64,000 nucleotides of DNA from Candidatus Omnitrophota bacterium (GTDB taxonomy: Bacteria; Omnitrophota; Gorgyraeia; Gygaellales; Profunditerraquicolaceae): the NCBI GenBank assembly GCA_026387455.1, contig JAPLLR010000017.1, forward strand, positions 5,635-69,634, written 5' to 3'. Made by a program: the position numbers and the translations under genes. Positions 1 through 16,119 of the stretch are shown in pieces (the first letter of the stretch is position 1; every line of letters begins with the position of its first letter). Below the pieces are notes generated by a model. The model saw only the letters and a list, made by a program, of their open reading frames with translations, did no database searches and was not told where the DNA came from.

Positions 1-3000
1 GCTAGTAATTCCCCCTACCCCGGCAGTCAGAGTAACATTATTAGCACCATTATTGGCATTAAGCCTAGCGGTCGCGCCGGTGAAAACAATGGTACCCGTA
101 GTGATACTATCATTATTGGTAGTATTGACCAACCCGTTAAATGTAGTTGTCCCGCTACCGGCGACCTGATTTAAGGCCGTGGCAGTAATCGCTACTAAAT
201 TCGCGTTACCTGCGCTGTTAATAGTGATAGTGCCAAGTGGCGTACCACCGCCTACTATACCATTAAGATTTATGGTGCCAGTGCCGGCAGTGAGGCCAAG
301 GGTTTCTGTGTAGGCTGTAGTTGCGTCTATGGTGTTATTAAAGGTGATATCTCCAATACCTGCTCCTGTATTTAAGAGAACATTCCCGGTAAGAGTAACT
401 GCGGTAGCGAAGCTAATATCGTCATTAGTAGTAGTGATATCTCCGGCAGTAGATACTGCGCCTGCACCGTTCTGGGTGAAAGAGCCGTCGAGGGTCATGT
501 CACCGGCGCCTGCAATGGTCAATAATCCGGCATTAGTCACTTCAACAATGCCCCCGCCTGCTGTATTCACCGTATTATTAAAGGTAAAGGCATTACCGGT
601 AAGGTCAACTCCGCCTGCGGCATTGGTATCCAGTGCGCCATTAAATGTGGTGGTGCCTGTACCGGCGACTTGTGTTAGGGATGAAGCTCTGATTGCTGCA
701 GCAGTAACGTCAGTTGTGCTTGTTACGGTAACGGCCCCTAATCTAGTTCCGCCGCCCACCGCACCGGTAAAGGTAATATTTCCGGTACCGGCAGTCAGGC
801 CTAAAGTCTCTGTACCGGCTACAGTTCCGTTGAGGGTATTATTAAAGATGACATTGCCTATGCCCGCGCCAGTATTTAAGAGAACGTTCCCAGTGAGAGT
901 GACTGCGGTAGCAAAACTGATGTTGTCATTAGTAGTAGTGATATCTCCGGCAGTAGATACTGCGCCTGCACCGTTCTGGGTGAAAGAGCCGTCGAGGGTC
1001 ATGTCACCGGCGCCTGCAATGGTCAATAATCCGGCATTAGTCACTTCAACAATGCCGCCGCCTGCTGTATTCACCGTATTATTAAAGGTAAAGGCATTAC
1101 CGGTAAGGTCAACTCCGCCTGCGGCATTGGTATCCAGTGCGCCATTAAAGGTAGTTGTACCCGTGCCGCCAAGCTGGGTGATGGTTACACTGGAAATATC
1201 GGTTGCGGTTACATCATTTGCTCCTGTGATAGTAAGATTGCTTAATCTGGCTCCGCCGCCTACTATACCTCCAAAGACGATATCGCCTGTGCCGGAGTTA
1301 AGACCAAGATCAAATCCGCCGTTAACTGTGTTTGTAAAATTAATATTACCTATCCCGGCTACAGACTGGGTGCTAAGAAGGACATTCCCGGTTAAAGTAA
1401 CTGGAGTTAAAAAGCTGATAAGATCATTAGAAGTAGTAATGTCTCCAGCAGTGGAAGCCGCGCCTGCGCCGTTCTGGGTGAAGGCGCCGTCGAGAACCAT
1501 ATCACCGCTAGCAGCATCAATTGTTAGAAGACCTCCGTTGGTAAAGGTCACTTTTCCGCCTGCAGTAGTGGTAATAGCCGGGCCAGCGCCTACGCCTATA
1601 ACGTGGATAGCTCCGCCGGAAATGAATGTTAAATCTTTGTTCTGGGTTAGATTAACGTTTCCGACCGCTGCACCATTTGCGATTGTTATAGCACCGCTTG
1701 CTGCGTCGCCTATAGTCATAGGAATAGCGATAGAGTCGAGAAATAAATCAGTAATATTAAAACCTTTTGTGTTGTCTTCAACACCGATAAGCGTTCCTGG
1801 GGTGTACGGCGCTATAGTTATGGCAGAAGCTGTAATAAGGCCTACATTAAAGGTAAAGGCGTCAGAGACAAATCTAATAGCAAAGGCGCCTGCATTTATC
1901 GTAATAGCAGGACCCGGGTCGCCTAAGACCATTCCGGTTTTTGATCTTAAGTCTATGCCATAACCACCGACTGATCCGGTAGTGGTTATATTATCGGCAA
2001 ATGTTGTTATGCCCTGACTATCTGCTTGGTCAATATTTGTCGCTCTGACAGCACCGCTAAATGTAACATCGTTAGCCTGAATAATATTCAAAGCATTTAG
2101 AGGCCTGGTAGCGCCTACTGCGCCGGTAAGAGTAATATTACCGCCGGTGACCGCTATCGCGTCAAAACCCGCGTTAAGGGTCAGGCTCTTGGCTCCACCT
2201 AAAGTGCTGTCTGTTGTGCCTAAAATCGAAATATCTGCGCCGGCTTCTGAACCTACTGCCCCGGCAAAGGTTGTATCTAAGGTAACCAGGGCTGCGCCTA
2301 CTTCCACGCTATCTAAAATATTAATTGCAACCCGGTCAGTGATGATATCGGCGTTTAAGGTAGTGGTTGCGCCCGAGCCATCGAGAGTAAGTGTCCCGCT
2401 ACCATGGTCATCTTGAATCGTACCATTAACTATAATTGCTCCGACAAAGATACCGAAAACGACAGGTGACTGAATTGTCGCAGGATCATGGAAAGTAATC
2501 GCATTTATGGTGATAACACCACAACTATTGGTGCGGCCGATTGTAATAAGGGGGTGCCCATCGGCAATCTGTCCAAGTTCTGGGGCTGTCAGGTTTAAAG
2601 CACCTACCACGCCACCTGGACCAGCAATATCAATATCTCTAGTTACAGTTGAGGGTTGAAGCGTAATCGCGCCTGTGCCGTTGATAGCAGCGTTAAGCTC
2701 CATTTCATCAGCGGTCAGCGTAAATGTGTTTGTGGCGCCAGTCGTGATCCCATTAAGAGTAATCGTATTAGTTCCCGCATCAAGAGTAGTTGTGCCATCT
2801 AATGTCAGGGCACCTAAAGTCATAGCTGTGTTAGTGGTGTTTACTGTACCTCTTGTATGCGTGGCGCTTGGACCGGCGTCGGTCTGTAATCCTCCGGTAA
2901 AGGTAGAACTGTCAGTGTTGTCATTACCTAGGGTTACGGTACCAGTGTTTAAGAAATTCGTAGCTCCGGCAATAGTATTGGTGCCGCCGGTAAAAGAGAT

Positions 3001-6000
3001 ATTGTAAGCGTTGGCAGTGCCGGCTGCGGACATCCCGGCACTGGCCGTGGTATTATCCAGGAAGGCGACTGTGGAAGCCGCGGCAGAATCGCTGATGGTA
3101 ATGGTGTTGGCGGTAAAGGTATTGCCGAAGGTCGCTCCGCCGGAATTAGTGATAGTGACAACGCCGATATCAGTGCCCACAGTACCGGTGACAGAGACTG
3201 CTCCGGTAAGATTAAAGGTAACATTGGACGCTGGTAATCCGGCTGTGCCGGCGATACTGGTCACAGTTGCACCGCCCGAACCGCCGGTGCCTAAGGTCAA
3301 GGTAACGCCGTCGCTTAAAGTGGTATTACCCAGGGTGATCAGGCCGCTTCCCGCGGCCAGAGTGCTGGAGCCGGTTACCGAGGTAGTGTTGTTTAAGTTG
3401 ATCGGCGCGTTAGTAGAGGAGATATTGCCATCGATAGCGTTGATTCCGGCAGTGTGAGTTAGGCCGCCGGCAAAGGCCGAGGCATCGCCGCCGCCGTTAC
3501 CGAAGGTGACACTACCGGTATTAGCCAGTGTAGTCGCCCCGACCCCGGCAATAGTATTGGTGCCGCCGGTAAAAGAAATATTGTAAGCGTTGGCAGTGCC
3601 GGCTGCGGACATCCCGGTTAAGGCCGTGGTATTATCCAGGAAGGCGACTGTGGAAGCCGCGGCAGAATCGCTGATGGTAATGGTGTTAGCGGTCACTGAA
3701 TTACTAAACGTAGCGCCGTTACTGCTAATAATAGTTAATACATTTATAGGCGAAACTCCGCCTCCTGCGCCCACCGCACCAGTTAAACTTATAACTCCAG
3801 TAGTTCCTGCTCTTAAACTTAGATTCCGGTTTGCTCCTGAACTATCAGTAGTACCGGTAATGCCGATAGCCGCTCCTGTTACAGTTCCGCCGACATTGGT
3901 GGTATCAAGTAATATATTCGCACCGAGCAATACATTATCGCTGATGTTTATCGCCCTGCCTGCGGTAGTGATATTGGCATTAAGAGTAGTAGCTCCCCCT
4001 CCGTCAATAGTAACAGAAGCATCATCTGAACCTGTAACCAGACCATTAACTGTGATAGAACCGCTGGGTGATTGAATAGTCACCGGATCATAAAAAGTGA
4101 CATTACCAGCTAGTACGCTTACCGTGATAAGCCCTGATGTGTCTAAGCGACCGATGGTAATCGAGCTGAATCCATTCTTCAAAGCCAAAATGTCCGCTGC
4201 GGATAAGTCCAGTATACCCGCACCTCCAGCTATACCTATACTTGTAGCTGCGGCTGAGGGCTGAAGAAGAATGGTGCTAGAGCCGGTCACGGAATTCGCG
4301 CCGCCCAGTAAATCTATCTCATCGGCAGTAAGAATCAAAGCATTTGCTCCGGCAGCCAAATTATTATTCACCGTTACAGTCGCCGTTCCGGCGTTGATAG
4401 TGACAGGACCTCCTAAACTTACCGGAGTATTTGCAGCAAAGGTAATATTGTTGTTAGTAGTTGTCAGATCTCCGTTCAAGGTCACGGTTCCGCCTGAACC
4501 CGTGGTATAAGTCTGGGTATTGGTGGTACGCGTAGCCTGCATCCCTATAGTCCCATTAGTCCCGCCAGCTCCTCCGGTAGTAGTAATGCTTAAATCATCT
4601 ACATAAGAGCCACCAGCATTGCTTAAGGCCACGCTTGTTACATTGCCTCCGGCTGAGCCGGCATTAGTAGTCGCGGTATTTAATGTAAGGTCGCGATTTG
4701 CCGCGTTCGCCGATACACCTGTGCCTGCCAGAGTAATCCCGCCAGCAGAGGCATTATTATCCTGCTCAGTATCAATAGTTATACTTGCCCCTAATCGGAT
4801 ATCTCCGGTCAAACTCACACTGCTCAGATCGCCATTAGTATCCACTAAGATATTATTACCCAGAGTAATCGTTCCGTCTATAGCAGCATCGGTAGTTACG
4901 GAAAAATCATTAATATACTTATCCCCGCCAGCATTATTATCCACTAAACCGATGGTCACTGCTCCGCCTGAGGCATCGGCAAAACTGGTAGAAGCATCGA
5001 TATTAAAATCATAGCCTACAGCATTAGCATAAATATTGGAGGTCCCTAAATTAACTGCTCCGGCATTATTGTTATTTCCTGTTTCCGTATCTATGGTTAC
5101 GCCGTTAGCTCTGATATCGATATCCTTGCCGCCGCTTACCGTAACAGTTCCGTTATCCGTAGAAAGATTTGCTCCCATCCTAAGTGAAGACGGGTTTGTA
5201 AAAGATATCCCCCCGCCTGTTCCGCCGCTAGTATCAATGGCGTTGCCCACTGTCACTACGCCGGTATTATTAATGGTGACACTCCCGCCATTAGTAGTAA
5301 TTGTGCCACTGGTATTATTAAAGGTAGTGCCGCTGGATTGAAAAGCGCCTCCTCCAGTAGTCACAGCTAAACCTAGCGTTACTGCCCCACTATGATTTAG
5401 AGTTACGCCGCCGCCACCTCCACTTGTAGAAATCGTCCCGCTGGTAAGATTTTCGAATGTGGTTCCAGCAGAACTAAAAGTTCCGCCATTGGTGTTAATC
5501 TGATCTCTGATTTGCACACCCGTGGTGTGCGCGCTTAAGTCTACATTGCCGCCATTAGTAGTAATTGTTGCTCCAACCTGACTATCGAAAGATGTTCCGT
5601 CAGAAATAAAACTGCCTGTGCCTGTATTGATGGTATCTCTAATATTTACTGTTCCACTGTGGCCGGTCAAGTCTACATTGCCGCCATTAGTAGTAATTGT
5701 GCCGCCGGCAATAGTTTGAAAATTTGTTCCAGAAGAGCTAAAACTACCTACCCCGCTATTAACCGCCGCACGAATGCCCACCGCACCAGTATGTCCGGTA
5801 AGATTAACATTGCCGCCACTTGTGGTAATCGTACCAGAGGCATTACTGTCAAATGAGGTGCCGCTAGAAGTAAAATTACCACCGCCGGTGGTGATTGCTG
5901 AATTTACATCTACAGTTGTAATGGCAGCCAATGTAACGTTTAATTTACCCGTGCCTCCGGTGTTGGCAATCCCCTGGCTTAGTGTGATACTACCCTGGGC

Positions 6001-7518
6001 GTTTAGTATCAAATTAACGTCAATGTTCCCTGCTGATTTGTTAATAGCACCAGCGGCACCCTGAGTAATATTTCCCGCCTGCGCACCGCCGGCTGTATTA
6101 AGCGTGACGCTAGTGCCTGTATTCAAGTTAGTATTAATAGTACCTGCGTTTACCGTAGAATTAATCCCGGTAGAGCCCCATACTCCACCAGCCCAACCGC
6201 CATTAAAATCAGCGCCATTTATTGTTAGATTATATCCCGGGTCGATATAGAATGTGCCTGCTTTTCCGTTTGGAGCAGTTGCGTCTGCTTTACCATAAAC
6301 TTCAACATGTTCTCTTCCGGATACCTCTATAAAGCCACCATCGCCAGAAAGCGCGCCACCATTGGCATAAATTATTGCGCCCGACCAAAAAAGAGTCGTC
6401 TCAGGCGAATAAACAATTACTCTTCCCCCATTTCCGCTTAATTCAGAATTAGCCGTAGTTAAGCTATCGGAGTCTAATGCTAAAGTATCGCTGGCAAATA
6501 AATCAATATTTCCCCCATCGCCATTTACGCTATCGGCATGAATCTCTCCAAACTGCCCGACTTTTTCGCCGTTGATGGAGACATCACCGCCATCCGTATC
6601 ATCATCCACCGCGGATACACTTATTCCGCCGCTGTTTTGAATAATGCCGGAGCTGTTAGAAGTAAGAATTACCTCGCCGCCGCTATTAACCAATGAGCTG
6701 GCACGGACCGTCCCTTCCTGATTGATAAGATTATCAAATATGCCATCCACTGCTTCAGCCCGAATATTCACTAAGCCACCATCGGCAGTAATGGTGCCTG
6801 AGTTATTTACCCCGTCCTTGATATCCTGGCCGTCCGGCCCAGATACCGCATTCTTAACCTTATCATCCACTGCTGCCGAAATCAGACCACGGCTGTCTAA
6901 GTCCAAGGTCACCGCATCACCTGAGGCCAGATTCACGCTTCCCATGTGCGCCTGAATTACACCTTCATTTCTCACTGCCCCGCCCAGCAAAGAAATCCCC
7001 CCGCCGCTAGCAGCAATAAGCGAACCCTGATTAATAACGAAAGCACTGGTTAACCCCTGATTCTGAAAATGGTAGTTTCCGGATTTAAAATCATCGTTAT
7101 TCATATCCAGGGAAGAAGCCACTAAGCCCGCCACATTGACTGATGAGCCGGGGCCGAAAAGTATGCCGTTAGGATTAATCAGAAAGATATTTCCGTTAGC
7201 GTTAAGGAAGCCAAAAATCTCAGAGATATTGCCTCCTGTCACCCGGTTAAGAGCAACTGAAGACGCGCCAGGCTGCAGGAAATTAACCGTATTACCTGTG
7301 CCGATACTGAAACTATTGTAATTAATAATAGCCCGGTCAGAGGTAGAGATATTTAAAGCGTTGGCCTGCGAGCGGTCAAAGCTGGCATCCCCATAAACCA
7401 CCTGCTCGCCCTGAGGAAGCTCTCCGGCAAATGCCGGGCGAAAAGCGATTCCGCTGGCCATGGCTAAAACCAGGATCACCCGCAAATATTTGTCTAAAGT
7501 AAGTCTATATGTGCCCAT
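1..7518 (-). CDS. Giant TpsA-family exoprotein (filamentous-haemagglutinin-like adhesin or toxin), partial. The C-terminus lies beyond the window start, so at least 2,505 codons are visible. The N-terminus carries a two-partner-secretion (TPS) domain followed by a long beta-helical repeat region.
   Basis: Minus-strand frame (codons at 3k+1..3k+3) was hand-translated at 1-111, 2401-2460, 3001-3060, 5041-5100, 6241-6300 and 7000-7518, and was open every time. N-terminus reads MGTYRLTLDKYLRVILVLAMASGIAFRPAFAGELPQGEQVVYGDASFDRSQANALNISTSDRAIINYNSFSIGTGNTVNFLQPGASSVALNRVTGGNISEIFGFLNANGNIFLINPNGILFGPGSSVNVAGLVASSLDMNNDDFKSGNYHFQNQG, which matches the haemagglutination-activity/TPS domain consensus (NxxxxxxW-SFNIG..E.V.F.QP-S..LNRV...S.I.G.L.ANG.VFLINPNGI.FG). 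Downstream come Gly/Thr/Asn-rich beta-helix repeats (e.g. NVTLTAGVGGITS, DSITTGTIVFTGA). It is absent from the ORF track only because its stop codon lies outside the window. Confidence 0.8.
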   Translation of the reverse strand, partial: MGTYRLTLDKYLRVILVLAMASGIAFRPAFAGELPQGEQVVYGDASFDRSQANALNISTSDRAIINYNSFSIGTGNTVNFLQPGASSVALNRVTGGNISEIFGFLNANGNIFLINPNGILFGPGSSVNVAGLVASSLDMNNDDFKSGNYHFQNQGLTSAFVINQGSLIAASGGGISLLGGAVRNEGVIQAHMGSVNLASGDAVTLDLDSRGLISAAVDDKVKNAVSGPDGQDIKDGVNNSGTITADGGLVNIRAEAVDGIFDNLINQEGTVRASSLVNSGGEVILTSNSSGIIQNSGGISVSAVDDDTDGGDVSINGEKVGQFGEIHADSVNGDGGNIDLFASDTLALDSDSLTTANSELSGNGGRVIVYSPETTLFWSGAIIYANGGALSGDGGFIEVSGREHVEVYGKADATAPNGKAGTFYIDPGYNLTINGADFNGGWAGGVWGSTGINSTVNAGTINTNLNTGTSVTLNTAGGAQAGNITQGAAGAINKSAGNIDVNLILNAQGSITLSQGIANTGGTGKLNVTLAAITTVDVNSAITTGGGNFTSSGTSFDSNASGTITTSGGNVNLTGHTGAVGIRAAVNSGVGSFSSSGTNFQTIAGGTITTNGGNVDLTGHSGTVNIRDTINTGTGSFISDGTSFDSQVGATITTNGGNVDLSAHTTGVQIRDQINTNGGTFSSAGTTFENLTSGTISTSGGGGGVTLNHSGAVTLGLAVTTGGGAFQSSGTTFNNTSGTITTNGGSVTINNTGVVTVGNAIDTSGGTGGGISFTNPSSLRMGANLSTDNGTVTVSGGKDIDIRANGVTIDTETGNNNNAGAVNLGTSNIYANAVGYDFNIDASTSFADASGGAVTIGLVDNNAGGDKYINDFSVTTDAAIDGTITLGNNILVDTNGDLSSVSLTGDIRLGASITIDTEQDNNASAGGITLAGTGVSANAANRDLTLNTATTNAGSAGGNVTSVALSNAGGSYVDDLSITTTGGAGGTNGTIGMQATRTTNTQTYTTGSGGTVTLNGDLTTTNNNITFAANTPVSLGGPVTINAGTATVTVNNNLAAGANALILTADEIDLLGGANSVTGSSTILLQPSAAATSIGIAGGAGILDLSAADILALKNGFSSITIGRLDTSGLITVSVLAGNVTFYDPVTIQSPSGSITVNGLVTGSDDASVTIDGGGATTLNANITTAGRAINISDNVLLGANILLDTTNVGGTVTGAAIGITGTTDSSGANRNLSLRAGTTGVISLTGAVGAGGGVSPINVLTIISSNGATFSNSVTANTITISDSAAASTVAFLDNTTALTGMSAAGTANAYNISFTGGTNTIAGVGATTLANTGSVTFGNGGGDASAFAGGLTHTAGINAIDGNISSTNAPINLNNTTSVTGSSTLAAGSGLITLGNTTLSDGVTLTLGTGGSGGATVTSIAGTAGLPASNVTFNLTGAVSVTGTVGTDIGVVTITNSGGATFGNTFTANTITISDSAAASTVAFLDNTTASAGMSAAGTANAYNISFTGGTNTIAGATNFLNTGTVTLGNDNTDSSTFTGGLQTDAGPSATHTRGTVNTTNTAMTLGALTLDGTTTLDAGTNTITLNGITTGATNTFTLTADEMELNAAINGTGAITLQPSTVTRDIDIAGPGGVVGALNLTAPELGQIADGHPLITIGRTNSCGVITINAITFHDPATIQSPVVFGIFVGAIIVNGTIQDDHGSGTLTLDGSGATTTLNADIITDRVAINILDSVEVGAALVTLDTTFAGAVGSEAGADISILGTTDSTLGGAKSLTLNAGFDAIAVTGGNITLTGAVGATRPLNALNIIQANDVTFSGAVRATNIDQADSQGITTFADNITTTGSVGGYGIDLRSKTGMVLGDPGPAITINAGAFAIRFVSDAFTFNVGLITASAITIAPYTPGTLIGVEDNTKGFNITDLFLDSIAIPMTIGDAASGAITIANGAAVGNVNLTQNKDLTFISGGAIHVIGVGAGPAITTTAGGKVTFTNGGLLTIDAASGDMVLDGAFTQNGAGAASTAGDITTSNDLISFLTPVTLTGNVLLSTQSVAGIGNINFTNTVNGGFDLGLNSGTGDIVFGGIVGGGARLSNLTITGANDVTATDISSVTITQLGGTGTTTFNGALDTNAAGGVDLTGNAFTFNNTVNTAGGGIVEVTNAGLLTIAGAGDMTLDGSFTQNGAGAVSTAGDITTTNDNISFATAVTLTGNVLLNTGAGIGNVIFNNTLNGTVAGTETLGLTAGTGNITFTGAVGGGTRLGAVTVTSTTDVTAAAIRASSLTQVAGTGTTTFNGALDTNAAGGVDLTGNAFTFNNTVNTAGGGIVEVTNAGLLTIAGAGDMTLDGSFTQNGAGAVSTAGDITTTNDDISFATAVTLTGNVLLNTGAGIGDITFNNTIDATTAYTETLGLTAGTGTINLNGIVGGGTPLGTITINSAGNANLVAITATALNQVAGSGTTTFNGLVNTTNNDSITTGTIVFTGATARLNANNGANNVTLTAGVGGITS
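335..1180 (-). repeat. Near-identical tandem duplication (unit about 522 bp, roughly 174 aa) inside the TpsA coding region.
   Basis: Sequence 335-856 recurs almost base-for-base at 857-1180 (e.g. ggtgatatctcc...gtcaccggcgcctgcaatggtcaataatccggcattagtcacttcaacaatgcc). The antisense ORF 329..1963 shows the same peptide twice. Confidence 0.8.
2962..3719 (-). repeat. Pair of dispersed direct repeats of about 170 bp (2962-3132 and 3549-3719) inside TpsA.
   Basis: Both copies contain ggcaatagtattggtgccgccggtaaaaga[g/a]atattgtaagcgttggcagtgccggctgcggacatcccgg...gtggtattatccaggaaggcgactgtggaagccgcggcagaatcgctgatggtaatggtgtt. The antisense ORFs 3011..3457 and 3590..4075 share the N-terminal peptide MAVPAADIP... 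Confidence 0.8.
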
Positions 7519-9194
7519 AGATATACTGTGCTTTTGGAGTTATCCGAAGTCCGGGGATGCAAAGGAAAGCCCCAGTCAGCCTTCAGATAAAAATCTTTCC
7601 AGGGCTGGAACCGAATCCCCCAGCCCGCGCCCATCAAAGTGTCAGAACCGTGTTCTCCCACCAAAGGACTACGCAGCCAACCCTGGCCGTAATCCCAGAA
7701 CCAAACAAACTGGATCTTATCGCGCAATTTATTATTTTTAGGAATTAAGTACACCGGAGTGCGCCATTCAATATTTACGTTATAGCCGCAGTCTCCCATA
7801 AACTCAAGCTCAGGATACCCGCGCACTGTCTGGGCGCCACCAATATAATATTGTTCACCGGCTACCAGCTTGTCCCCCGAATATTGCCCGCGCGCCGAAA
7901 CCAGCAAAAATGAAGACAGCGGCAGGTTTAATCTCCTGCCCACACTAAGCACATACTTGGTAAACTCACCACCCGAACCTAAGCGGCTTGCGTCAGGATC
8001 GTCTTTACCCAAAGCCCCGGCAAAATCCGGAATGCCAAAATCAGTTTCAAAATTCGCATAGGTCGCGCCCCATGCATCAGAACCATCTAAACTAAAATTC
8101 AGCTTGGCCACGCTTACGTTATCACTTGAAGTAGTGGTGCCCAAAAGATAATTCTTACTGTGTTTGATATCTAAACCGAATCCGCCGTTACCGCGGATAT
8201 TCTCGCTATTAATAAAAGGATGCACCACGTATGTCCCAGCTACCCAGGCCCAGCCGTTGGCATCCAACACTTCAAACTCCCTCACCAGGTCAGTCTTGAC
8301 ATAACTGCCATAGCCCCCGATCCGTGTACCCAGATAATTCACCGGCACGTTATAATCCAGGCTTCCGCCGTTAAGCTTCTCGTTGCTTTTTTGGAACCTG
8401 ACGGTAAATATATCGTCAACGCCAAAGAGATTGTTATTGCTGTATCCAACGCCAAAGCGCTGCTTGCCGGTATATTTTGTTCCATAGGTATTATAGTCTA
8501 AGAAAAAGTGCTGTGGATTCTCGTCCGTAACCTTCAAGACCACATCTGTGGTGTCCTTACGCTCACCAGTCAAAAGCACGGCTTTGACTGTACGGTCGGG
8601 ATTGGTATTCAAGCGGCGCACACTCTTCATCAAGTCCTTGTAAAGTACGGTATCTCCTTCGCGGATATGTAATTTCCAACGCACGTATTCCTTATCAAAA
8701 TATTTCCCGCCTTCGATATTAATAGTCCCGATACAACCTTCGACGACTCGGATCTCTATTGTATTATCGATAATCTTTTGCACCGGCACATATACGTATG
8801 TGGTGATATAGCCTTTAGAGCGGTAGAATTTCTGGATAGCGCTGGCTAGCTCATTGAATTCTTTCAAACCCAGGCGCTTATCCTTATACTGGGCTAATAT
8901 AGGTAAAAAGTCCTCAGGAGTAAAAATAGTGACCCCGTTTAAAACAAACTTGACGACCTTCACCCCACCCTCGGTTTTTTCTTCCACCACCGCTTGAGCA
9001 GGCCGCTCATCCTTTACCTCGATCTTTACCTTTGGCTTGATAAGCCCGGACTTTTCCTCCTGCAGGCGCAGAGTATCTTCCATCTGCTGCTCAATAGCCC
9101 CGGCCTTGGTAGAAGCCGGTGCCTGGGCATAAGACGTGGCAACAACACCGAACAGAAACGCCAGAAATAAAATTGCGGTTATTCTTTTATCCAT
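7494..9194 (-). CDS. TpsB outer-membrane transporter of the two-partner secretion system (ShlB/FhaC/HecB family; POTRA domains plus a 16-strand beta-barrel).
   Basis: ORF 7494..9242; the likely start is M17 (MDKRITAILFLAFLFGVVATSYAQA, a signal peptide). It is about 566 aa, as is FhaC. It carries the conserved loop-6 motif YYIGGAQTVRGYPE of ShlB-type barrels. It sits immediately upstream of tpsA, and its stop overlaps the tpsA start by about 25 nt. Confidence 0.7.
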   Translation of the reverse strand: MDKRITAILFLAFLFGVVATSYAQAPASTKAGAIEQQMEDTLRLQEEKSGLIKPKVKIEVKDERPAQAVVEEKTEGGVKVVKFVLNGVTIFTPEDFLPILAQYKDKRLGLKEFNELASAIQKFYRSKGYITTYVYVPVQKIIDNTIEIRVVEGCIGTINIEGGKYFDKEYVRWKLHIREGDTVLYKDLMKSVRRLNTNPDRTVKAVLLTGERKDTTDVVLKVTDENPQHFFLDYNTYGTKYTGKQRFGVGYSNNNLFGVDDIFTVRFQKSNEKLNGGSLDYNVPVNYLGTRIGGYGSYVKTDLVREFEVLDANGWAWVAGTYVVHPFINSENIRGNGGFGLDIKHSKNYLLGTTTSSDNVSVAKLNFSLDGSDAWGATYANFETDFGIPDFAGALGKDDPDASRLGSGGEFTKYVLSVGRRLNLPLSSFLLVSARGQYSGDKLVAGEQYYIGGAQTVRGYPELEFMGDCGYNVNIEWRTPVYLIPKNNKLRDKIQFVWFWDYGQGWLRSPLVGEHGSDTLMGAGWGIRFQPWKDFYLKADWGFPLHPRTSDNSKSTVYLWAHIDLL

Positions 9195-11502
9195 TAGTGA
9201 TCTTAACCAGATAATCCCTAGCCACAGTCTCCTTAGGAGCAAGTATCAGGATCTTAGTAAAATAGTCCTGCGCACTCATATAATCGCCTTCTGAATAAGC
9301 GGCAAAAGCCCGTTGATAAAGATACCCCACCACCCCATCCTGCGTATATTCAGGAGCGCGCTTCTTGGCGGAAACGGATTTTGGCTCTTGTCTTACCGGC
9401 TTGGGCTTTTGCACGGAAATCTTTTTAATAGCGCCTGGTTGCTCTTTAGTATAAGGGGCCGGCTGAGAAGGTTTCTCGCTCCTGGCCATGAGCGCTGCCT
9501 CCTTTTGCTTTGCCTGTTCCCGCTGTTTTTCCATCTGTTCTTCCTGCTTAGCCAGCTGTAGGCGGGCAACTTCCTGCTGCTGAAGCTGCTGCTGACGCTG
9601 CTGCTTGACTACTTTATTCTTAACAACTTCCTGCTGCTTCTGCTGTTTAGCTGCCTGCTGACGGAACTTCTCCTGCCTGGTCAGCTGCTCCTGTTCTAAT
9701 TGCTGACGGTTGGATTCCTCCTGCCAACGCATTTCTTCCTGCTGAGCCAGACGCGCCTGAGACTCATCTTCCCTGACAAGCTTTAATTGATTGGGGATCT
9801 TTTCTTCAAGATAAAGGCGCGCCTGCTGCTGTTTGGAATCCATGCTAAGTATTTGATCGAAACATTCTATTGAAGACTGGTAATCCTGGATATCAAAAGC
9901 GGCCAAAGCCTGGCCGTAAAGGGCTTTGATGTTTTCTTCTCTTAAAGCCTGCGGGATCTTTGTCTGCACAAATTCCTGTGCCTCTAATTCGCCCGGAGAA
10001 AGCGCCAATATCTCTCTAAACTTAGCGTCGGCATAAACAAAATCCCGATTACTGAAATCTCCAAGCGCCTGACTATAAAGAACATTTATCTTTACCAGCT
10101 TGAGTTTCTCCGGAATTTTTACCTGCAGATATTCTTTCGCCTCCTCCTGCGAATTATCTAGCGCCAGAATATCCTTAAAAAGAACCTCTGCCTTGGGATA
10201 ATCCCCGACACTAAAAAACTCAACAGCGTCTTTATAAATATCCTTGATCTTAAGCTGCTTACGCACTTCGGGGATCTTGGCCTGGATGTACTGGATCGCC
10301 TCTGCCTGCGCCGGATCAAGCACCAAAGCCCTGTTGAATATTTCTTCGGCAGCATCATACTGCTGGTTATTGAAAGCTGCAGAGCCATCGTCCAGCAGGC
10401 CTTTTACTTTCTGATCCCTAATCAATCCAGGGATTTTGATTTCCACGTATTCCTTAGCCTCAGCCTGCTTAAGATCTAAAGACAAAATGTCATAGAATAT
10501 CTGCTTTGCCTTATCAAGCTCCTGGTTGTTAAAAGCGGTCAATGCGTCTTTATACAAAACCGCGATCCTCTGCTCTTTAAGCTTCTGCGGAATGCTGACC
10601 TCAAGGTATTCTTTGGCCTTAAACTGGTCCTGGTCAATGGCCAGGATCTCCCTGCAATAATTTGCCGCCTGATCGTAATTAGCGCCGTTAAAAGCCGTAG
10701 CTGCCTGCTGGAAAAGATTATCGATCTTTTCTTTCTTTACGATAAAAGCTATCTTGGCCTCAGCATCATCCCTAATCGCCTTCTGGTCAGGAAATATAGC
10801 CAGCACTTCATTAAACAACTTTACGGCTTTTCCATAATCGCCTATTTCGAAATATTCCAGCCCCTCCTTATAGAGCGACTTTACCTTCTGCTCCTTTACC
10901 AGCTGGGGTATCCGGTCCTGAAAATAATATTTGGCCTCTTTTTCTCCGGGGTCAATGGCCAGGATCGCCTTAAAGATCTCGCTGGCCTGTTCAAAGTTTT
11001 GGCCAAAGAATCGGCTATAGGCCTCCTTATATAGGTAAGCGACCTGATCCTTCTTCTGACGCTCCTTGATCTTATCGGCGCGCTTACTCTCTTTTTCGCC
11101 TTTCGGGCCGCCAATGCGCTCTGCTTTAGTCAGAATATCTATGATCTCCCGCGCCATATTAGCCCTACGCCTTAAATCCTTATCCTTAGTCTCCTGGGCG
11201 ACCTTATTATAAAGAATAAGGGCACTTTCGTACTCACCCAGCTGATAAAGATAATTGGCATCGGCAAACATCTGTTCCGGGGATTTATTCTTGATTTCAA
11301 TAAAGCTTGAGGCGTCCAGCTTGGGCTTGGGCTTAGCCTTGGGCTGCTCTTTGGCAGTGGCTTCAGTAGTAGCCTTTACTTCCGGTGCTTCAGCACAATG
11401 CCCCAAAAGGCACCAGCTAAAGATAAAAACCAGGAACAAAAATCCTAAAATCAGGTATTGGCTCTCTTGAGGATACATAAACGCGCTTGACTGTCTTCTC
11501 AT
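9187..11502 (-). CDS. Secreted repeat protein of about 770 aa. It has at least 7 tandem 53-aa TPR-like repeats, then a Gln/Glu/Lys-rich coiled-coil and basic segment, then a terminal TPR-like unit. It is co-oriented with tpsB and overlaps its start by 8 nt.
   Basis: ORF 9187..11553; the likely start is MRRQSS at 11502, with an AGGAAGG RBS upstream. The N-terminus is a signal peptide (YLILGFLFLVFIFSWCLLGHCAEA). Repeat consensus is xEAKEYLxxKIPxxLKxxKIxxLYxxALxxFxxxDYxxAxxxFxxILxLDxxQ. The C-terminal part contains ...QQEEMRWQEESNRQQLEQEQLTRQEKFRQQAAKQQKQQEVVKNKVVKQQRQQQLQQQ... Confidence 0.55.
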   Translation of the reverse strand: MRRQSSAFMYPQESQYLILGFLFLVFIFSWCLLGHCAEAPEVKATTEATAKEQPKAKPKPKLDASSFIEIKNKSPEQMFADANYLYQLGEYESALILYNKVAQETKDKDLRRRANMAREIIDILTKAERIGGPKGEKESKRADKIKERQKKDQVAYLYKEAYSRFFGQNFEQASEIFKAILAIDPGEKEAKYYFQDRIPQLVKEQKVKSLYKEGLEYFEIGDYGKAVKLFNEVLAIFPDQKAIRDDAEAKIAFIVKKEKIDNLFQQAATAFNGANYDQAANYCREILAIDQDQFKAKEYLEVSIPQKLKEQRIAVLYKDALTAFNNQELDKAKQIFYDILSLDLKQAEAKEYVEIKIPGLIRDQKVKGLLDDGSAAFNNQQYDAAEEIFNRALVLDPAQAEAIQYIQAKIPEVRKQLKIKDIYKDAVEFFSVGDYPKAEVLFKDILALDNSQEEAKEYLQVKIPEKLKLVKINVLYSQALGDFSNRDFVYADAKFREILALSPGELEAQEFVQTKIPQALREENIKALYGQALAAFDIQDYQSSIECFDQILSMDSKQQQARLYLEEKIPNQLKLVREDESQARLAQQEEMRWQEESNRQQLEQEQLTRQEKFRQQAAKQQKQQEVVKNKVVKQQRQQQLQQQEVARLQLAKQEEQMEKQREQAKQKEAALMARSEKPSQPAPYTKEQPGAIKKISVQKPKPVRQEPKSVSAKKRAPEYTQDGVVGYLYQRAFAAYSEGDYMSAQDYFTKILILAPKETVARDYLVKITNG

Positions 11503-11786
11503 ATGCCTTCCTTTTTTATTTATTGTCAACCAAATAATAAATTTAGTTGACAAATCACGACTATCCCTTTACAGGACAATCGTACGGTGACAAACCGCCT
11601 GTTGGATTATATACCAGATTTTACTATTTTGTCAATTGATATTTTTGTTCAAGGTAAGCTGGGTTGCAAGGGATTACGAAAGGAAAATTCTCTCGACGCA
11701 AAAGTGTTTTGAATAAATTATAAATAAGCTGAATTTGCATAATATTTTTAAAAAACTGGTAAAGCATGACATTAACTAGGAAGAAA

Positions 11787-12692
11787 TTAAAACTTATGCT
11801 GGACTAGATAGCGGAATGCGCTAAGGCAGGCTTTGGAGCCTTCCCCGGCAGCAATAATGATCTGTTTCTCCGGAACATCCGTGACATCGCCGGCGGCAAA
11901 TATCCCGGGAATATTAGTTTCGTTACGGCAATTTATAATTATTTCCTGCAGTTGATTTCTTGCTATGGCTTTGGCGAATTCCGAGTTGGGCAGAAGACCT
12001 ATCTCGACAAACACGCCTTGGACGGCAAGGGTTTCCTCTTTTCCTTGCCTCAAAATTTTAATCCCGCTTACAAACTTATCGCCGAGTATCCCGGTCACCT
12101 GAGCGCTGTTTAACACCGTGACCTTGCTATCCACTTCCACCTGCTCGCGCATCACCGCGTCACCACCCAGAGCGTCGGTAATATTAACTAGTGTTACACG
12201 CTTTGCGAACCTTCTCAGCTGCAATACCGCATCCAACGCAGAGTTTCCTCCTCCGATGACCGCTACATCTTTATTAGCGAATATCGGTCCGTCACAGGTA
12301 GCGCAGTAAGTCAGTCCATGGTTCTTGAATTCTTTCTCACCCGTCACGTTCAGCTCTTTGGTCCTTTTTCCGGAAGCGATAATCACAGACCTTGCTTCAT
12401 ATGAGGCCTTGTCAGTAGTAACAATAATGACCTCGCCCGTTTTGCTAATATCCCTGACCACCTCATCCGCCTTAAGCGGAATATCGTATTTACGCATATG
12501 CTCTTCAAACTTGGCAGCCAGCTCCGGGCCGGTAATAAACTGATACCCGGTATAATTCTCGATATCCCCGCTCCAGGCCGCCTGGCCGCCGATATCCTTA
12601 GAGATCACCAGGAATTCAATTTTCTTGCGCGCCGCATAAACTGAGGCAGTGATCCCGGCTGGACCGGCTCCGATAATAATCAAATCATACAT
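11787..12692 (-). CDS. trxB: Thioredoxin-disulfide reductase (pyridine nucleotide-disulfide oxidoreductase).
   Basis: 301 aa. N-terminal FAD motif IIGAGPAG, redox-active CATCDG motif, second GGGNSA dinucleotide-binding motif. Confidence 0.75.
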   Translation of the reverse strand: MYDLIIIGAGPAGITASVYAARKKIEFLVISKDIGGQAAWSGDIENYTGYQFITGPELAAKFEEHMRKYDIPLKADEVVRDISKTGEVIIVTTDKASYEARSVIIASGKRTKELNVTGEKEFKNHGLTYCATCDGPIFANKDVAVIGGGNSALDAVLQLRRFAKRVTLVNITDALGGDAVMREQVEVDSKVTVLNSAQVTGILGDKFVSGIKILRQGKEETLAVQGVFVEIGLLPNSEFAKAIARNQLQEIIINCRNETNIPGIFAAGDVTDVPEKQIIIAAGEGSKACLSAFRYLVQHKF

Positions 12693-12693
12693 T

Positions 12694-12930
12694 TTAAATC
12701 CCTAAAGCGTTCCTGATCTTGCTCACATCGTAACCAACGATAATCACTCCTTCGATATCCAGGACCGGCACGCCCATCTGCCCGGACTTAGCCACCATCT
12801 CTTCAGCAGCTTTTTCATCTTGCCCTACATCAATATCCTCAAAAACGATATTGTTATCTTTTAAAAACTGCTTTGTCCGAATACACCAGGGGCATGTTGG
12901 AGTGCTGTAAACTTTCACTGACTTTGACAT
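12694..12930 (-). CDS. Glutaredoxin-like protein (NrdH/YruB-type, CPWC active site).
   Basis: 78 aa; VKVYSTPTCPWCIRTKQFL...GVPVL thioredoxin-fold signature. Confidence 0.7.
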   Translation of the reverse strand: MSKSVKVYSTPTCPWCIRTKQFLKDNNIVFEDIDVGQDEKAAEEMVAKSGQMGVPVLDIEGVIIVGYDVSKIRNALGI

Positions 12931-12942
12931 CTTCTTCTCTCC

Positions 12943-13419
12943 TTAAGTTCTGGACTTTAAGTCAATAAGCTGTTTTAAATGATGCTGCTCCTGGCGGATC
13001 AATTCATCGATCACTTTTTGGTCATAATCAGGGACGATTTTTTTCATCCCCTCGTAGAAAACAATGGAATCTTCTTCAAACCCGATGCCTCTTTGTATCG
13101 CATCCTCCTTGGTCTTAATTGTCCTTGCGATCTCTTCACCCTTATTTTTCTGAGTAAAGATATGCTCTGCGGCCAGGCTTCTCATGTAAGCGCTGTATTC
13201 ATCAGCATCCAGGCCCTGCGGCTCATATTTTTCAACCTTGTCCAATATCCCCTGAAAAACCTTAACATGCTTCTCTTCTTCTATCGCTAAAAACTCAAAT
13301 ACTTGGCTTGCCGTAGTAGCTTTAAATTGCTTTGCCAACGTATTATAAAAGTCCCTGCCGTTTTTCTCGATCTGTATCCCCAGTTCCACCACTTCACTGG
13401 CAGAAAATATATTTCCCAT
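12943..13419 (-). CDS. Ferritin-like / rubrerythrin-like diiron protein.
   Basis: 158 aa with ExxH-type motifs (LAIEEEKH, LAAEHIF, RQEQHH) typical of rubrerythrin-type four-helix bundles. An AGGAGGG RBS lies immediately upstream. Confidence 0.5.
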   Translation of the reverse strand: MGNIFSASEVVELGIQIEKNGRDFYNTLAKQFKATTASQVFEFLAIEEEKHVKVFQGILDKVEKYEPQGLDADEYSAYMRSLAAEHIFTQKNKGEEIARTIKTKEDAIQRGIGFEEDSIVFYEGMKKIVPDYDQKVIDELIRQEQHHLKQLIDLKSRT

Positions 13420-13473
13420 ATACCCTCCTTGCGCAAAAAGCGCAACACTGGCCTATCCTTTAAGGCCAGGTGT
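13420..13473 (-). promoter_or_regulatory. Conserved structured 5' leader, copy 1. On the mRNA it forms two hairpins directly upstream of the GGAGGG RBS and ATG of the rubrerythrin-like gene.
   Basis: Plus-strand reads accctccttgcgcaaaaagcgcaacactggcctatcctttaaggccaggtgt. TTGCGC-AAAAA-GCGCAA is a perfect hairpin. cactggcc...ggccaggtg forms a second hairpin. The same 55-nt leader recurs at 17680-17734 with a compensatory change. Confidence 0.55.
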
Positions 13474-13507
13474 AGCAGAAAGCTGCACCCCAGCTAAAAG
13501 GTATGCT

Positions 13508-13536
13508 GGGTGCGTCCTTTTTAGGACGCAACACCC
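13508..13536 (-). terminator. Rho-independent terminator candidate after the PNPOx-like gene.
   Basis: gggtgcgtcc-ttttta-ggacgcaacaccc stem-loop, with a U-rich run following on the minus strand. Confidence 0.45.
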
Positions 13537-13559
13537 GCCAATCCTTTATGGCGAGGTAC

Positions 13560-14018
13560 TTACTTAATATTCTTCGGCGTTAAATCCACTATCTCTTCTA
13601 TGTCTATTTCGATCATATATTTAGGGTCAGGCAGAAGCGCTTCCGGATGGGCCTTGTGGCCTTTCTCCTCATGGATATTCCTTAAAAGCCGCTGCGCCAG
13701 CCTCCCGGCAATTTTATCTTCCCAGGCTTTGAGAATATCCGCGGTCAACTCTTCTTTAGACACCAGCCGGGCCTTACCTTTAAGACAGTAACCTGAGAAT
13801 TTATGTTCATTTACCGCGGTAATACTTACGTGGGGATTATGAACCAGATTCTTGTAGGTTTCGGCGTGGTAAACATCCAGAAGAAAGACCTTGCCTTCAA
13901 CTTTAACCTTGATTATATCCTTACAGGCACTGTGGGCATAGCCTTTAGCGTCGATGGTCGAAACGATCACAAACCCCTGATTTGTTAGAAAATTTATTAC
14001 GTCTTGCGAAATCTGCAT
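13560..14018 (-). CDS. Pyridoxamine 5'-phosphate oxidase family (FMN-binding split-barrel) protein.
   Basis: 152 aa; N-terminal pattern VINFLTNQGFVIVSTIDAKGYAH typical of PNPOx-like flavin proteins. Confidence 0.5.
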   Translation of the reverse strand: MQISQDVINFLTNQGFVIVSTIDAKGYAHSACKDIIKVKVEGKVFLLDVYHAETYKNLVHNPHVSITAVNEHKFSGYCLKGKARLVSKEELTADILKAWEDKIAGRLAQRLLRNIHEEKGHKAHPEALLPDPKYMIEIDIEEIVDLTPKNIK

Positions 14019-14022
14019 AGGG

Positions 14023-14202
14023 TTATTCTTTAGGAAGAGTTTTAATCAAATGTTGGAGAAACTCTTTATGCTTTATTTCTTCGGCGACCAGGAAATTAAA
14101 AGTCTCTCTGACCTCGGGAAGCTCGCTGGCAAACTGCTTGTATTTATCTATCGCCACCAGCTCCATGGATAACGCTAAGTTTAACGCCTCAACCGGTCTC
14201 AT
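14023..14202 (-). CDS. Unannotated 59-aa ferritin-like (single ExxH motif) small protein.
   Basis: Hand translation gives MRPVEALNLALSMELVAIDKYKQFASELPEVRETFNFLVAEEIKHKEFLQHLIKTLPKE. The start ATG overlaps the stop region of the flavodiiron gene (GGTTAATAATG). It is below the ORF-track length cutoff. Confidence 0.45.
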   Translation of the reverse strand: MRPVEALNLALSMELVAIDKYKQFASELPEVRETFNFLVAEEIKHKEFLQHLIKTLPKE

Positions 14203-14204
14203 TA

Positions 14205-15398
14205 TTAACCCCCTTTTATCTTTGCGGCAAACTCTTTGCCGAATTCATAGCAGCGTTTTGATTCTGCTTCATCCGGAACATACTTTATCCCAATCCCTGG
14301 CTGGGCCAGAGTCAAACCGGATCTATTAATCAACTCTTCAAGATCCTTTACTGCTCCGCCTGCCCACCCGAATGAACCAAATGCCGCAGCAATCCTGTTT
14401 TTAGGAGTTAACCCTCTGACAAATTCCAGAAACCCCGCCATAGAAGGAAGCATGCTGTTATCGTGCGTGGAAGAACCGAAAATAAACCCTTTGGAATCCA
14501 GCATCTCCTTAATTATCTCTGTGCGATCAGAAGTAGTTACGTCAAATATCTTAACGCTCACTCCGGATTCAAGGATACCATCAGCAATCTTACGCGCCAT
14601 CTTTTCAGTCGAGCCCCACATAGTTTCATAAGCGATCACTACTTTAGGCATGGCTGAATTCTTTGCCCAATAAACGTATTTTTCAACTATTTGCATGGGG
14701 TCCTTGCGCCAGATCACTCCGTGGCTGGGAGCAATTATTTTTATAGGTAGCCCCATTTTTTTGACCTCTTCGATCTTCTTCAAGATAATCACCCCTAATG
14801 GCCAAAGAATATTGCCGTAATATTTTGCCGCCTCATCCCAAAGCGAACACTGATCCACCTCATCAGCAAAACGCTCGGAGGTAGCGAAATGCTGACCAAA
14901 AGCGTCATTAGGCATGAGCAAGGCATCTTCCGGGCAATAAGTAAACATACTATCCGGCCAGTGGATCATGGGGACCTCAAGAAAACTTAAAGTTCTTTTG
15001 CCCAGCTTCAAGGTATCCCCGGTTTTTACTACCTGAAAATCCCAGTTTTCGTAATAGTTTTTAAACAAACCTTCTTTACATTTTTGTGTGCCCAGGACTT
15101 TTGCTTTCGAACAGAGCTTCATTAATTCCGGCAGCGCTCCGGAGTGATCCGTCTCTACGTGGTTAGCGATCACATAATCTATTTTTTCAGGCGGAATTAT
15201 CTGCTTTATATTCTCAATAAGTTCAGCGGAGAATGAGCCTAAAACCGTATCCACCAGAGCGATTTTTTCGTCTATTATCAAATAGGCATTATAGGTAGTG
15301 CCACGCTTAGTAGTATAGGTGTGGCCGTGAAAGGTGCGTACGTTCCAGTCGATCACACCGATAGAGTAGAGGTTATCTAAAATCTTAATTGCGGACAT
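14205..15398 (-). CDS. Flavodiiron protein (FprA / rubredoxin:oxygen oxidoreductase type; metallo-beta-lactamase-like domain plus flavodoxin domain).
   Basis: 397 aa. HxExDH-type diiron motif (ANHVETDHSGALP) in the N-terminal MBL-like domain; C-terminal flavodoxin-like domain (KVVIAYETMWGSTEKMA). Confidence 0.8.
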   Translation of the reverse strand: MSAIKILDNLYSIGVIDWNVRTFHGHTYTTKRGTTYNAYLIIDEKIALVDTVLGSFSAELIENIKQIIPPEKIDYVIANHVETDHSGALPELMKLCSKAKVLGTQKCKEGLFKNYYENWDFQVVKTGDTLKLGKRTLSFLEVPMIHWPDSMFTYCPEDALLMPNDAFGQHFATSERFADEVDQCSLWDEAAKYYGNILWPLGVIILKKIEEVKKMGLPIKIIAPSHGVIWRKDPMQIVEKYVYWAKNSAMPKVVIAYETMWGSTEKMARKIADGILESGVSVKIFDVTTSDRTEIIKEMLDSKGFIFGSSTHDNSMLPSMAGFLEFVRGLTPKNRIAAAFGSFGWAGGAVKDLEELINRSGLTLAQPGIGIKYVPDEAESKRCYEFGKEFAAKIKGG

Positions 15399-15409
15399 TG
15401 CATTCTCCT

Positions 15410-16117
15410 TTAATATCCTTGGAAGTTCTCAGTCACGATCTGCTCTTTAGGTAATAACAGCTCATCACTCAGCATCTTGCGCATAGCCTCTACCATCCCC
15501 GGAGGCCCGCAGAGGAAAAATTTGCGCTCCTTGTAATCAGAAACTTCATTTCTTATGATCGAAGCATTTATATATCCAACCGAGCATTTAAACCCCGGTT
15601 CTGTCTCGCACAATACATGCGCTACCCTCAGTTTAGGGTACATTTTTTGCATGGCGCTTAAGTCGTCCTTAAAGACAATATCCTTAACAGAGCGATTGGA
15701 ATATACCAGCACTATATCAACCCCCAGATTTCTATCCACCACATCCTTGGTGATACTACGTAGCGGAGTTATCCCGATACCTCCGGAAAGAAAGGCGATT
15801 TTTCCAGCAGGATTATCCTCCAACGTAAATTTGCCAAACGGATACTGAATCTGTAATTCGTCCCCCGGCTTCAACGCATCCATAGCTTTTGAAAAATCAC
15901 TCTGGCTTAATTTCTTAGTGAACTCCAGATGGCATTTCTCGGAAGGTGAGCTTGAAATGGATAGATAGTGCTTCAGCTGCGGATTATTTTGCAGGGTGAC
16001 CTGTAATAATTGGCCGGCCTTGAAATTTATGTCTTGAACCCGCTCAACGCGCACGCTTTTGACATTGTAGTTACGCTGGATAATCTCAATTACCTTCGTC
16101 GCTACTTCCGCCGGCAT
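15410..16117 (-). CDS. FNR-like FAD/NAD(P)-binding oxidoreductase, the probable NAD(P)H-dependent reductase partner of the rubredoxin/FDP/SOR chain.
   Basis: 235 aa. Ferredoxin-reductase-type module signatures: LSGGIGITP NAD-binding glycine motif and CGPPGM near the C-terminus. Confidence 0.6.
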   Translation of the reverse strand: MPAEVATKVIEIIQRNYNVKSVRVERVQDINFKAGQLLQVTLQNNPQLKHYLSISSSPSEKCHLEFTKKLSQSDFSKAMDALKPGDELQIQYPFGKFTLEDNPAGKIAFLSGGIGITPLRSITKDVVDRNLGVDIVLVYSNRSVKDIVFKDDLSAMQKMYPKLRVAHVLCETEPGFKCSVGYINASIIRNEVSDYKERKFFLCGPPGMVEAMRKMLSDELLLPKEQIVTENFQGY

Positions 16118-16119
16118 AT

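Follow-up and report, generated by a model that had tools for sequence, protein, structure and literature searches.

A gene cluster containing three consecutive, overlapping genes was identified on the minus strand (positions 1..11502) of a 64,000-nucleotide (nt) stretch of DNA, here called the window, from the Candidatus Omnitrophota assembly GCA_026387455.1 (contig JAPLLR010000017.1). In the order of transcription, the genes encode a tetratricopeptide-repeat (TPR) protein, an outer-membrane transporter (TpsB) and a very large exoprotein (TpsA). Taken as a whole, the locus is probably a chromosomal type Vb operon of Candidatus Omnitrophota that produces a repeat-rich, adhesin-like fibre together with a TPR accessory protein. 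An original prediction, made from the letters of the window, had described a minus-strand two-partner secretion (TPS) locus with the order TPR-TpsB-TpsA, and domain matches to all three proteins bear this out. Judged from its sequence, the locus is a TPS system: TpsA carries a Sec signal and a TPS domain, TpsB belongs to the Omp85 family, and the genes are adjacent and overlapping. N-terminal export signals were read from the translations of all three products. The three proteins have already been deposited in GenBank from a Candidatus Omnitrophota metagenome-assembled genome (MAG) as MCX5704806.1 (TpsA, P0001), MCX5704807.1 (TpsB) and MCX5704808.1 (TPR protein). The features of the locus are as follows.

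1..7518, minus strand: TpsA exoprotein, the first 2,506 of 3,020 deposited residues; an open frame; over its full length (100%) the fragment is 100% identical to P0001.
7426..7518, minus strand: Sec signal peptide of TpsA, amino acids (aa) 1-31, MGTYRLTLDKYLRVILVLAMASGIAFRPAFA, read from the translation, with predicted cleavage before GE.
6619..7356, minus strand: TPS secretion domain of TpsA, aa 55-300, with an NPNGI motif (PF05860 and TIGR01901).
1..6230, minus strand: repeat-rich shaft of TpsA, aa ~430-2506, rich in G, T, A and N, with nested internal duplications.
7494..9194, minus strand: TpsB outer-membrane transporter, 566 aa (PF03865 ShlB, 1.1e-30; PF08479 POTRA_2, 1.8e-18; PF01103 Omp85, 1.9e-06).
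9187..11502, minus strand: TPR/coiled-coil protein, 771 aa (Pfam TPR_2, 1e-25; TPR_1, 3e-19), identical to MCX5704808.1.
11523..11553, minus strand: inverted repeat TTGTCAAC-N15-GTTGACAA in the 5' leader of the TPR gene, read from the sequence.
11606..11635, minus strand: sigma-70-type promoter, TTGACA-18 nt-TATAAT, matching 12/12 consensus positions; probable operon promoter.

The minus-strand frame running from 7539 to 1 contains no stop in 2,513 codons and exits at the window edge, and its first ATG lies at 7518, as had been predicted. At roughly 3 stops per 64 codons, a chance run of this length would have a probability of about e^-120. P0001, which is annotated as 'filamentous hemagglutinin N-terminal domain-containing protein' and comes from a 73,678-nt contig, is 3,020 aa long; 514 aa, or about 1,545 nt, of the gene therefore lie beyond window position 1. 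The megaprotein of the original prediction thus keeps its size, about 3,000 aa, and loses its open end. The tpsA gene is missing from the open reading frame (ORF) track because the ORF lister omits ORFs that run off the window end. The plus-strand ORFs listed in this region, which had been taken for antisense artefacts, are indeed best read in that way: 329..1963, 3011..3457 and 3590..4075 gave no Pfam match, and the gene opposite them has a 100% database match.

The TPR gene overlaps tpsB by 8 nt (TPR stop at 9189..9187, TpsB ATG at 9194, sequence ATGGATAA), and tpsB overlaps tpsA by 25 nt (TpsB stop at 7496..7494, TpsA ATG at 7518). The 25-nt overlap is also kept in the related loci L002, L004, L006 and L007. 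Since the reading frames overlap, the genes are probably translationally coupled. The promoter at 11635..11606 is the sole perfect sigma-70 consensus in 7300..12000 and lies about 100 nt upstream of the ATG of the TPR gene; both of its hexamers are kept in L006 and L007 despite diverged flanks. A sequence scan found no comparable promoter and no convincing terminator between the three genes. The TPR gene, tpsB and tpsA very probably form one operon, as had been proposed from the overlapping stop and start codons. The upstream end that had been given for the locus, 11553, does not hold, as it is only a mechanical TTG after a stop. The TPR gene probably starts with the ATG at 11502; GGAAGG lies before this ATG, and GenBank uses it as well (771 aa).

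The inverted repeat in the leader of the TPR gene includes the TTG that was taken as the start by the ORF lister. It is kept in L006 and absent in L007, and it may represent an operator or a leader hairpin. The word TTGACAA/TTGTCAA of this repeat also makes the -35 box and recurs just past the -10 box. A MerR gene upstream of the related loci L002 and L004 was noted beside the possible-operator reading.

TpsB consists of a signal peptide, a POTRA region (matched at aa ~80-153) and a ShlB-type Omp85 barrel (aa 215-529), and the loop-6 VRGY motif and an FWDYG motif can be read in its translation. One POTRA stretch was matched by Pfam and a second is assumed. The best match among solved structures is CdiB (6wim, 2.5e-14). 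In GenBank the protein is labelled only 'hypothetical protein', though its ShlB and POTRA_2 matches exceed the Pfam cut-offs; every NCBIfam match falls far under its cut-off.

The TPS domain predicted at the N-terminus of TpsA was matched by PF05860 with an E-value of 5.6e-30 (105.5 bits against a cut-off of 33.5) and by TIGR01901 with 1.9e-22. The extreme N-terminus is conserved in orthologues (MGTFRFNLKVK..., MGTYRPALDKS...). Among solved structures, TpsA aa 17-635 (window 5614..7470) matches EtpA (8vba, 4.9e-60), and further matches of the TPS region are 8cpk (3.2e-47), HMW1 (2odl, 5.7e-32) and HxuA (4rm6, 4.7e-24). No FHA, CdiA, ShlA or HpmA chain was found among the PDB sequence matches of TpsA at E<=0.01. 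When TpsA was searched against Pfam in 600-aa pieces and as its last 514 aa (E<=1), no PT-VENN and no toxin family was matched. PF05594, PF13332 and PF04830, haemolysin-specific families and the Pfam repeat families likewise gave no match to TpsA. The hmmscan of full-length P0001 (3,020 aa) returned no family, not even TPS; the 2,506-aa and 600-aa fragments returned TPS at about 1e-30. The blank result is presumably due to the composition-bias filter of HMMER, which probably explains the empty precomputed Pfam field of P0001 and of several homologues.

The shaft is built from large repeats that were detected by protein self-comparison and DNA repeat search. Tandem units of 168 aa, up to 78% identical, occupy window 1..1731 (DNA period 504 at 134-1507, up to 93% identity). 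A pair of ~193-aa units (DNA period 579 at 2966-3718) and a duplication of ~540 aa were also found. Tandem Repeats Finder reported nothing on the locus because the periods of 504 and 579 nt exceed its limit. The composition of TpsA is 15.6% G, 14.9% T, 11.5% A, 9.3% N, 0.6% K and 0.1% C, with 2 Cys in 3,020 aa. The AlphaFold model of P0122, a homologue 83% identical to the end of P0001 across the aligned region, contains a confident beta-helix to about residue 140 (predicted local distance difference test, pLDDT, 75-93) and lower-confidence strands to about residue 228. Its pLDDT is below 50 from about residue 200, and the last ~115 aa are unmodelled (pLDDT below 35). Foldseek found no significant match to this model, and the weak matches were mostly beta-solenoids.

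TpsA resembles EtpA of the EtpBAC system of enterotoxigenic E. coli in its Sec signal, its TPS domain and its large imperfect tandem repeats, and in both systems a transporter and a third gene belong to the operon. In EtpA, the TPS domain precedes four repeats of 228 residues that form beta-helical turns (PMC10284417). TpsA is about twice as long, its units are 168 aa, and its shaft is unrelated in sequence, with no match past aa 635. The gene order is accessory-B-A here, and the third gene encodes an exported TPR/coiled-coil protein. EtpC is a glycosyltransferase. The HMW1A/B/C system of Haemophilus influenzae shares the TPS-domain subtype (2odl, as above) and also comprises a high-molecular-weight adhesin with a third partner. 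In PMC3983070, HMW1 is described as an adhesin with such a partner and the HMW1C family, to which EtpC is related, as glycosyltransferases. HMW1C is cytoplasmic, whereas no glycosyltransferase domain occurs here, and the TpsA family ends in a different conserved C-terminal module. HMW1 is tethered through a short C-terminal disulphide loop; TpsA has the two Cys already mentioned.

FhaB/FhaC of Bordetella and CdiA/CdiB follow the same secretion logic, a TPS domain with an Omp85-family TpsB, and belong to a similar size class, and the best solved match of TpsB is to a member of this group. In contrast to FhaB and CdiA, TpsA has no match to Fil_haemagg, Fil_haemagg_2, DUF637, VENN or C-terminal toxin domains. 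Of the FHA/CdiA/HMW1 class to which the protein had been assigned, the HMW1 part agrees with the TPS region and the FhaB/CdiA part does not. TpsA looks like an adhesin-type protein related to EtpA and HMW1, with a shaft repeat family outside the coverage of Pfam, rather than like CdiA.

From its N-terminus onwards, the TPR protein comprises a hydrophobic signal or anchor, the conserved head FIxIKNKSPEQMFxDANYLYQLGEYE, some eight TPR-containing repeats of 53 aa, a coiled coil rich in Q, E, K and R (aa ~575-680), a P/K linker and a last TPR unit. A KIP motif recurs at exact 53-aa spacing. The orthologues have in common the hydrophobic N-terminus, the conserved head, TPR-containing repeats of exactly 53 residues in varying number, the Q/E/K/R coiled coil and the terminal TPR unit. 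Sub-threshold NCBIfam matches include TIGR03302 BamD (3.3e-07) and TIGR02552 LcrH/SycD (4.2e-15, 55.7 bits against a cut-off of 104.8). A lipoprotein reading was rejected by eye, as no canonical lipobox is present.

The order TPR-TpsB-TpsA occurs in six diverged loci, the window and five others, in which TpsB is 51-94% and the TPR protein 28-87% identical to the window proteins. In the five other loci, listed below with the identities of the TPR protein, TpsB and the TpsA N-terminus to those of the window, respectively, the TPR orthologue lies directly upstream of TpsB and overlaps it or is <=18 nt away.

L006: 87/94/74%.
L007: 45/65/62%.
L008 (Omnitrophota MAG, Lake Tanganyika): 38/55/48%.
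L004: 40/51/50-54%.
L002: 28/53/52%.

L006 and L007 share the redox genes that flank the operon in the window. L002 and L004 lie between aromatic amino-acid biosynthesis genes and a second TPR gene of ~880 aa, with the MerR gene upstream, and the neighbours of L008 are different again. The second TPR protein is also exported, follows TpsA (L002 17819..20476, L004 18678..21323) and shows a weak 23-28% identity to the upstream TPR protein. The records of L006 and L007 are labelled 'uncultured Planctomycetales bacterium' and those of the window proteins Candidatus Omnitrophota; these labels are probably inconsistent. A further record, L031 (1..18272, a JGI contig), contains two giant TpsA genes in tandem, of 4,294 and 3,423 aa, the products of which are almost the same over their last ~500 residues. 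When metagenomes were scanned with the TPR alignment, 3 loci only were returned, none of them informative on linkage.

The conserved gene order suggests that the TPR protein is a candidate third partner of a clade-specific TPS system. We propose that it is a periplasmic accessory protein, either a holdase for the long unfolded TpsA or a BamD-like docking partner of TpsB, because of this synteny and the sub-threshold TPR similarities only. The likeness to BamA-BamD, where a TPR protein is paired with an Omp85-family barrel, and to LcrH/SycD, the class II TPR chaperones that hold extended substrates of type III secretion, is one of analogy only. With 771 aa, 53-aa repeats, a long coiled coil and scores below the family cut-offs, the protein is a member of neither family.

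In the proposed mechanism, the promoter at 11635..11606 would drive the three overlapping genes, and all three products would be exported by Sec. Recognition of the TPS domain of TpsA in the periplasm would fall to the POTRA region of TpsB, and the TpsB barrel would then thread the unfolded TpsA through the outer membrane. Once outside the cell, TpsA would form a long beta-solenoid fibre built from its repeats. To judge from synteny, the TPR protein may hold the long unfolded chain in the periplasm or dock on TpsB as BamD does with BamA. TpsA would most likely serve as a surface or released adhesin fibre that attaches to surfaces or other cells. This role is proposed because of the relationship to EtpA and HMW1, the repeat architecture, the absence of enzymatic or toxin domains and the attachment lifestyle of the Omnitrophota, for which an epibiotic, attachment-dependent way of life has been proposed (PMC10066038).

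The C-terminus of TpsA was examined in the deposited protein. The original prediction had raised the possibility that the missing C-terminus is a polymorphic toxin domain, as is often so in its class, and this is not supported: the 514 aa in question are known, have no Pfam match at E<=0.2 and align with non-toxin regions of related TpsAs. These are internal or pre-terminal regions (residues 1877-2203 of 2,411 in P0017 and 2042-2454 of 2,670 in P0026), and P0017 and P0026 run ~210 aa further than P0001. Only TPS was matched when Fil_haemagg_2, PT-VENN and DUF637 were sought in 600-aa pieces of the full protein. The closest relatives of the P0001 end, P0121-P0124 (49-83% identical), read ...FYEV(D/N)DVILRDLEYRAGR... 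and continue for about 215 residues, a stretch that contains a PGLVLYNYRLMGG motif followed by an aromatic-rich tail. Of the 120 best homologues, 27 have a related motif, PPGLV(I/L)FNNxLMGGG, at 80-125 residues from the C-terminus. The C-terminal module specific to the clade of P0001 is rare, with 10 representative clusters among 1.84 billion, including the full-length TpsAs P0026 and P0068.

Several observations weigh against the reading of the locus as an adhesin operon with a TPR accessory. A single-sequence AlphaFold model of the shaft in the window (aa 2003-2506) has a mean pLDDT of 43 and short strands only. A glycosyltransferase as third gene, as with EtpA and HMW1, was not found among the scanned neighbours, and glycosylation sequons are not enriched. 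P0001 diverges from its relatives at residues 3007-3020, right after ...VILRDLE, and stops 7 residues on, about 215 aa short. The TPR protein has generic TPR-family matches only, and its accessory role is argued from synteny alone. In the more distant loci L009 (Nitrospiraceae), L030 and L031, TpsB-TpsA pairs occur without a TPR gene.

The sequon and neighbour results also settled a separate lead. A glycosylated adhesin had been considered from the relationship to EtpA and HMW1. The number of NxS/T sequons in TpsA is at chance level (64 against 62 +/- 6.6), the scan of 26 neighbouring ORFs (not every ORF of the window) revealed no glycosyltransferase, and the third gene has TPR matches only. 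This lead was dropped.

The abnormal end of P0001 raises the question of whether this TpsA copy is a pseudogene or defective allele, cut about 215 aa before the end that the family C-terminal module gives to its relatives, in a locus that is decaying; this is rather unlikely. P0001 reads ...VILRDLESPMICS-stop where P0121, P0122 and P0123 (67-83% identical) read ...VILRDLEYRAGR... and continue. As P0001 is shorter than its relatives by the module, the deposited ORF looks truncated, and the copy is possibly defective or the product of misassembly; besides misassembly, a frameshift or a deletion could be the cause. The aberrant tail 'SPMICS' was not reproduced by out-of-frame translation of the DNA of the relatives, so that a simple one-base frameshift is not demonstrated. 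A search with the module found no separate C-terminal ORF belonging to the 73,678-nt contig, which agrees with a loss, but the word index used is insensitive and missed P0001 with a query taken from P0001 itself. The 3,013 intact upstream codons argue against long-standing decay. Moreover, MAG assembly of repeat-rich genes is error-prone, and this gene contains the 504-nt repeats described above. An exact look-up of P0001 returned no contig, a scan of genome contigs with the missing 514 aa gave no match, and the exact 36-mer of window 1-36 is absent from metagenome contigs. In the contig index, exact look-ups likewise gave no match for TpsB or for the TPR protein, though both are in the protein collection. 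A Logan contig of 3.4 kb from SRR20698647 contains an identical neighbouring gene, and the end of this contig falls inside the TPR gene.

It is similarly improbable that the TPR gene is a mere conserved neighbour, co-transcribed with a plain two-gene TPS system and unrelated to secretion. The generic matches of its product and the TpsB-TpsA pairs of the wider family that lack it are compatible with such a neighbour, and the six syntenic loci all belong to one clade, so that shared ancestry contributes to the conservation. The words 'TPR' and 'tetratricopeptide' do not occur in a 2017 review of TPS systems (PMC5422565). Against this, the gene stays directly upstream of TpsB while the identity of the TPR protein drops to 28% and the flanks change completely, and the sole strong promoter sits upstream of it. 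In Ca. Gorgyraea atricola (L029, 1..404), a K/R/E/Q-rich coiled-coil ORF, cut by the contig end, overlaps the start of TpsB and recalls the coiled coil of the window TPR protein; this charged ORF also speaks against a chance neighbour.

It is very unlikely that TpsA acts as a cytolysin (ShlA/HpmA/ExlA type) or in nutrient capture (HxuA type) rather than in adhesion. Such a function can be envisaged, since TPS domains alone leave the function unfixed (PMC5422565) and the solved structures related to the TPS region include HxuA. However, no ShlA or HpmA chain was matched at the PDB threshold given above, TpsA exceeds those classes 2- to 3-fold in length and consists of adhesin-like tandem repeats, and no TonB-dependent receptor gene equivalent to HxuC lies among the scanned neighbours.

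The most improbable alternative is CdiA-like contact-dependent inhibition, in which TpsA would deliver a polymorphic C-terminal toxin into neighbouring cells and be followed by an immunity gene: the B-then-A gene order, the very large TpsA, the CdiB match of TpsB and an abnormally ended ORF beyond which a further C-terminal segment is possible are compatible with it, but PT-VENN, DUF637, Fil_haemagg and toxin domains are absent from the 600-aa pieces and the last 514 aa, the solved relatives of the TPS region are EtpA, HMW1 and HxuA, with no CdiA or FHA chain at E<=0.01, P0121-P0124 end in a conserved and not a variable module, and TpsA is followed in related loci by the ~880-aa TPR protein, a 93-aa CsoR-like repressor or a 146-aa Rrf2 regulator, with no tightly linked small immunity ORF in four related loci (gaps to the next gene 134-664 nt).

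A Pfam scan of the neighbours identified a compact oxidative-stress cluster directly upstream of the TPS operon. Its genes are as follows.

11787..20672, minus strand: thioredoxin-reductase-like protein, rubrerythrin, PNPOx-like protein, flavodiiron protein, hybrid-cluster protein, a ferredoxin and an Rrf2 regulator.
11787..20672, minus strand: FAD/NAD-binding oxidoreductase (FAD_binding_6 and NAD_binding_1) and a peroxiredoxin fused to a pterin-4a-carbinolamine dehydratase domain.

A glutaredoxin in the oxidative-stress cluster was seen in L001. The remaining genes of the window are housekeeping genes (SecA, LeuRS, Lnt, MurJ, ComEC and UvrC). Given these surroundings, the TPS locus is chromosomal and lies on no obvious mobile element. 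Beyond 11.5 kb, the minus strand carries all but four of the ORFs that reach at least 150 aa; the four include 34559..35449, 46761..47237 and 54061..54717; the latter two plus-strand ORFs both overlap longer minus-strand ORFs. The only tRNAs of the window, Ala-ggc and Leu-caa, are both on the plus strand. The cumulative GC skew falls monotonically over the window, and in the TpsA region 1-4000 the sign of the skew is reversed, owing to the Gly/Thr/Ala/Asn codon content there. A c-di-GMP-I-UAU riboswitch (RF03168, 61729..61805, minus strand), which scores 67.7 bits where the gathering score is 65.9, sits just upstream of a transglutaminase-like ORF of 165 aa (61208..61705, minus strand; DUF553 and Transglut_core).

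The core of the locus is a standard, already deposited and automatically annotated type Vb system, and the locus is a modest variant by virtue of its conserved TPR partner and of a C-terminal module specific to the clade. If the TPR protein is part of the machine, it would add a third structural or chaperone partner to a pathway that is defined by needing two, and it would bear on how unfolded chains of more than 3,000 residues survive in the periplasm. The periplasmic protection of unfolded TpsA has been studied for very few systems (PMC5422565). Otherwise, the value of the analysis lies mainly in the correct call of a gene that a window-bound ORF lister had missed. Tentatively, an Omnitrophota clade may possess a three-component type Vb secretion system, in which a TPR partner, by docking or as a holdase, helps these ultra-small, host-dependent bacteria to export and anchor beta-solenoid attachment fibres of more than 3,000 residues that end in a clade-specific C-terminal module. 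No isolate of the Omnitrophota exists, and these bacteria are thought to live in attachment to other cells (PMC10066038). An adhesin operon that is both conserved and tractable would offer a handier entry to this attachment than their giant ORFs of 20-40 kb.

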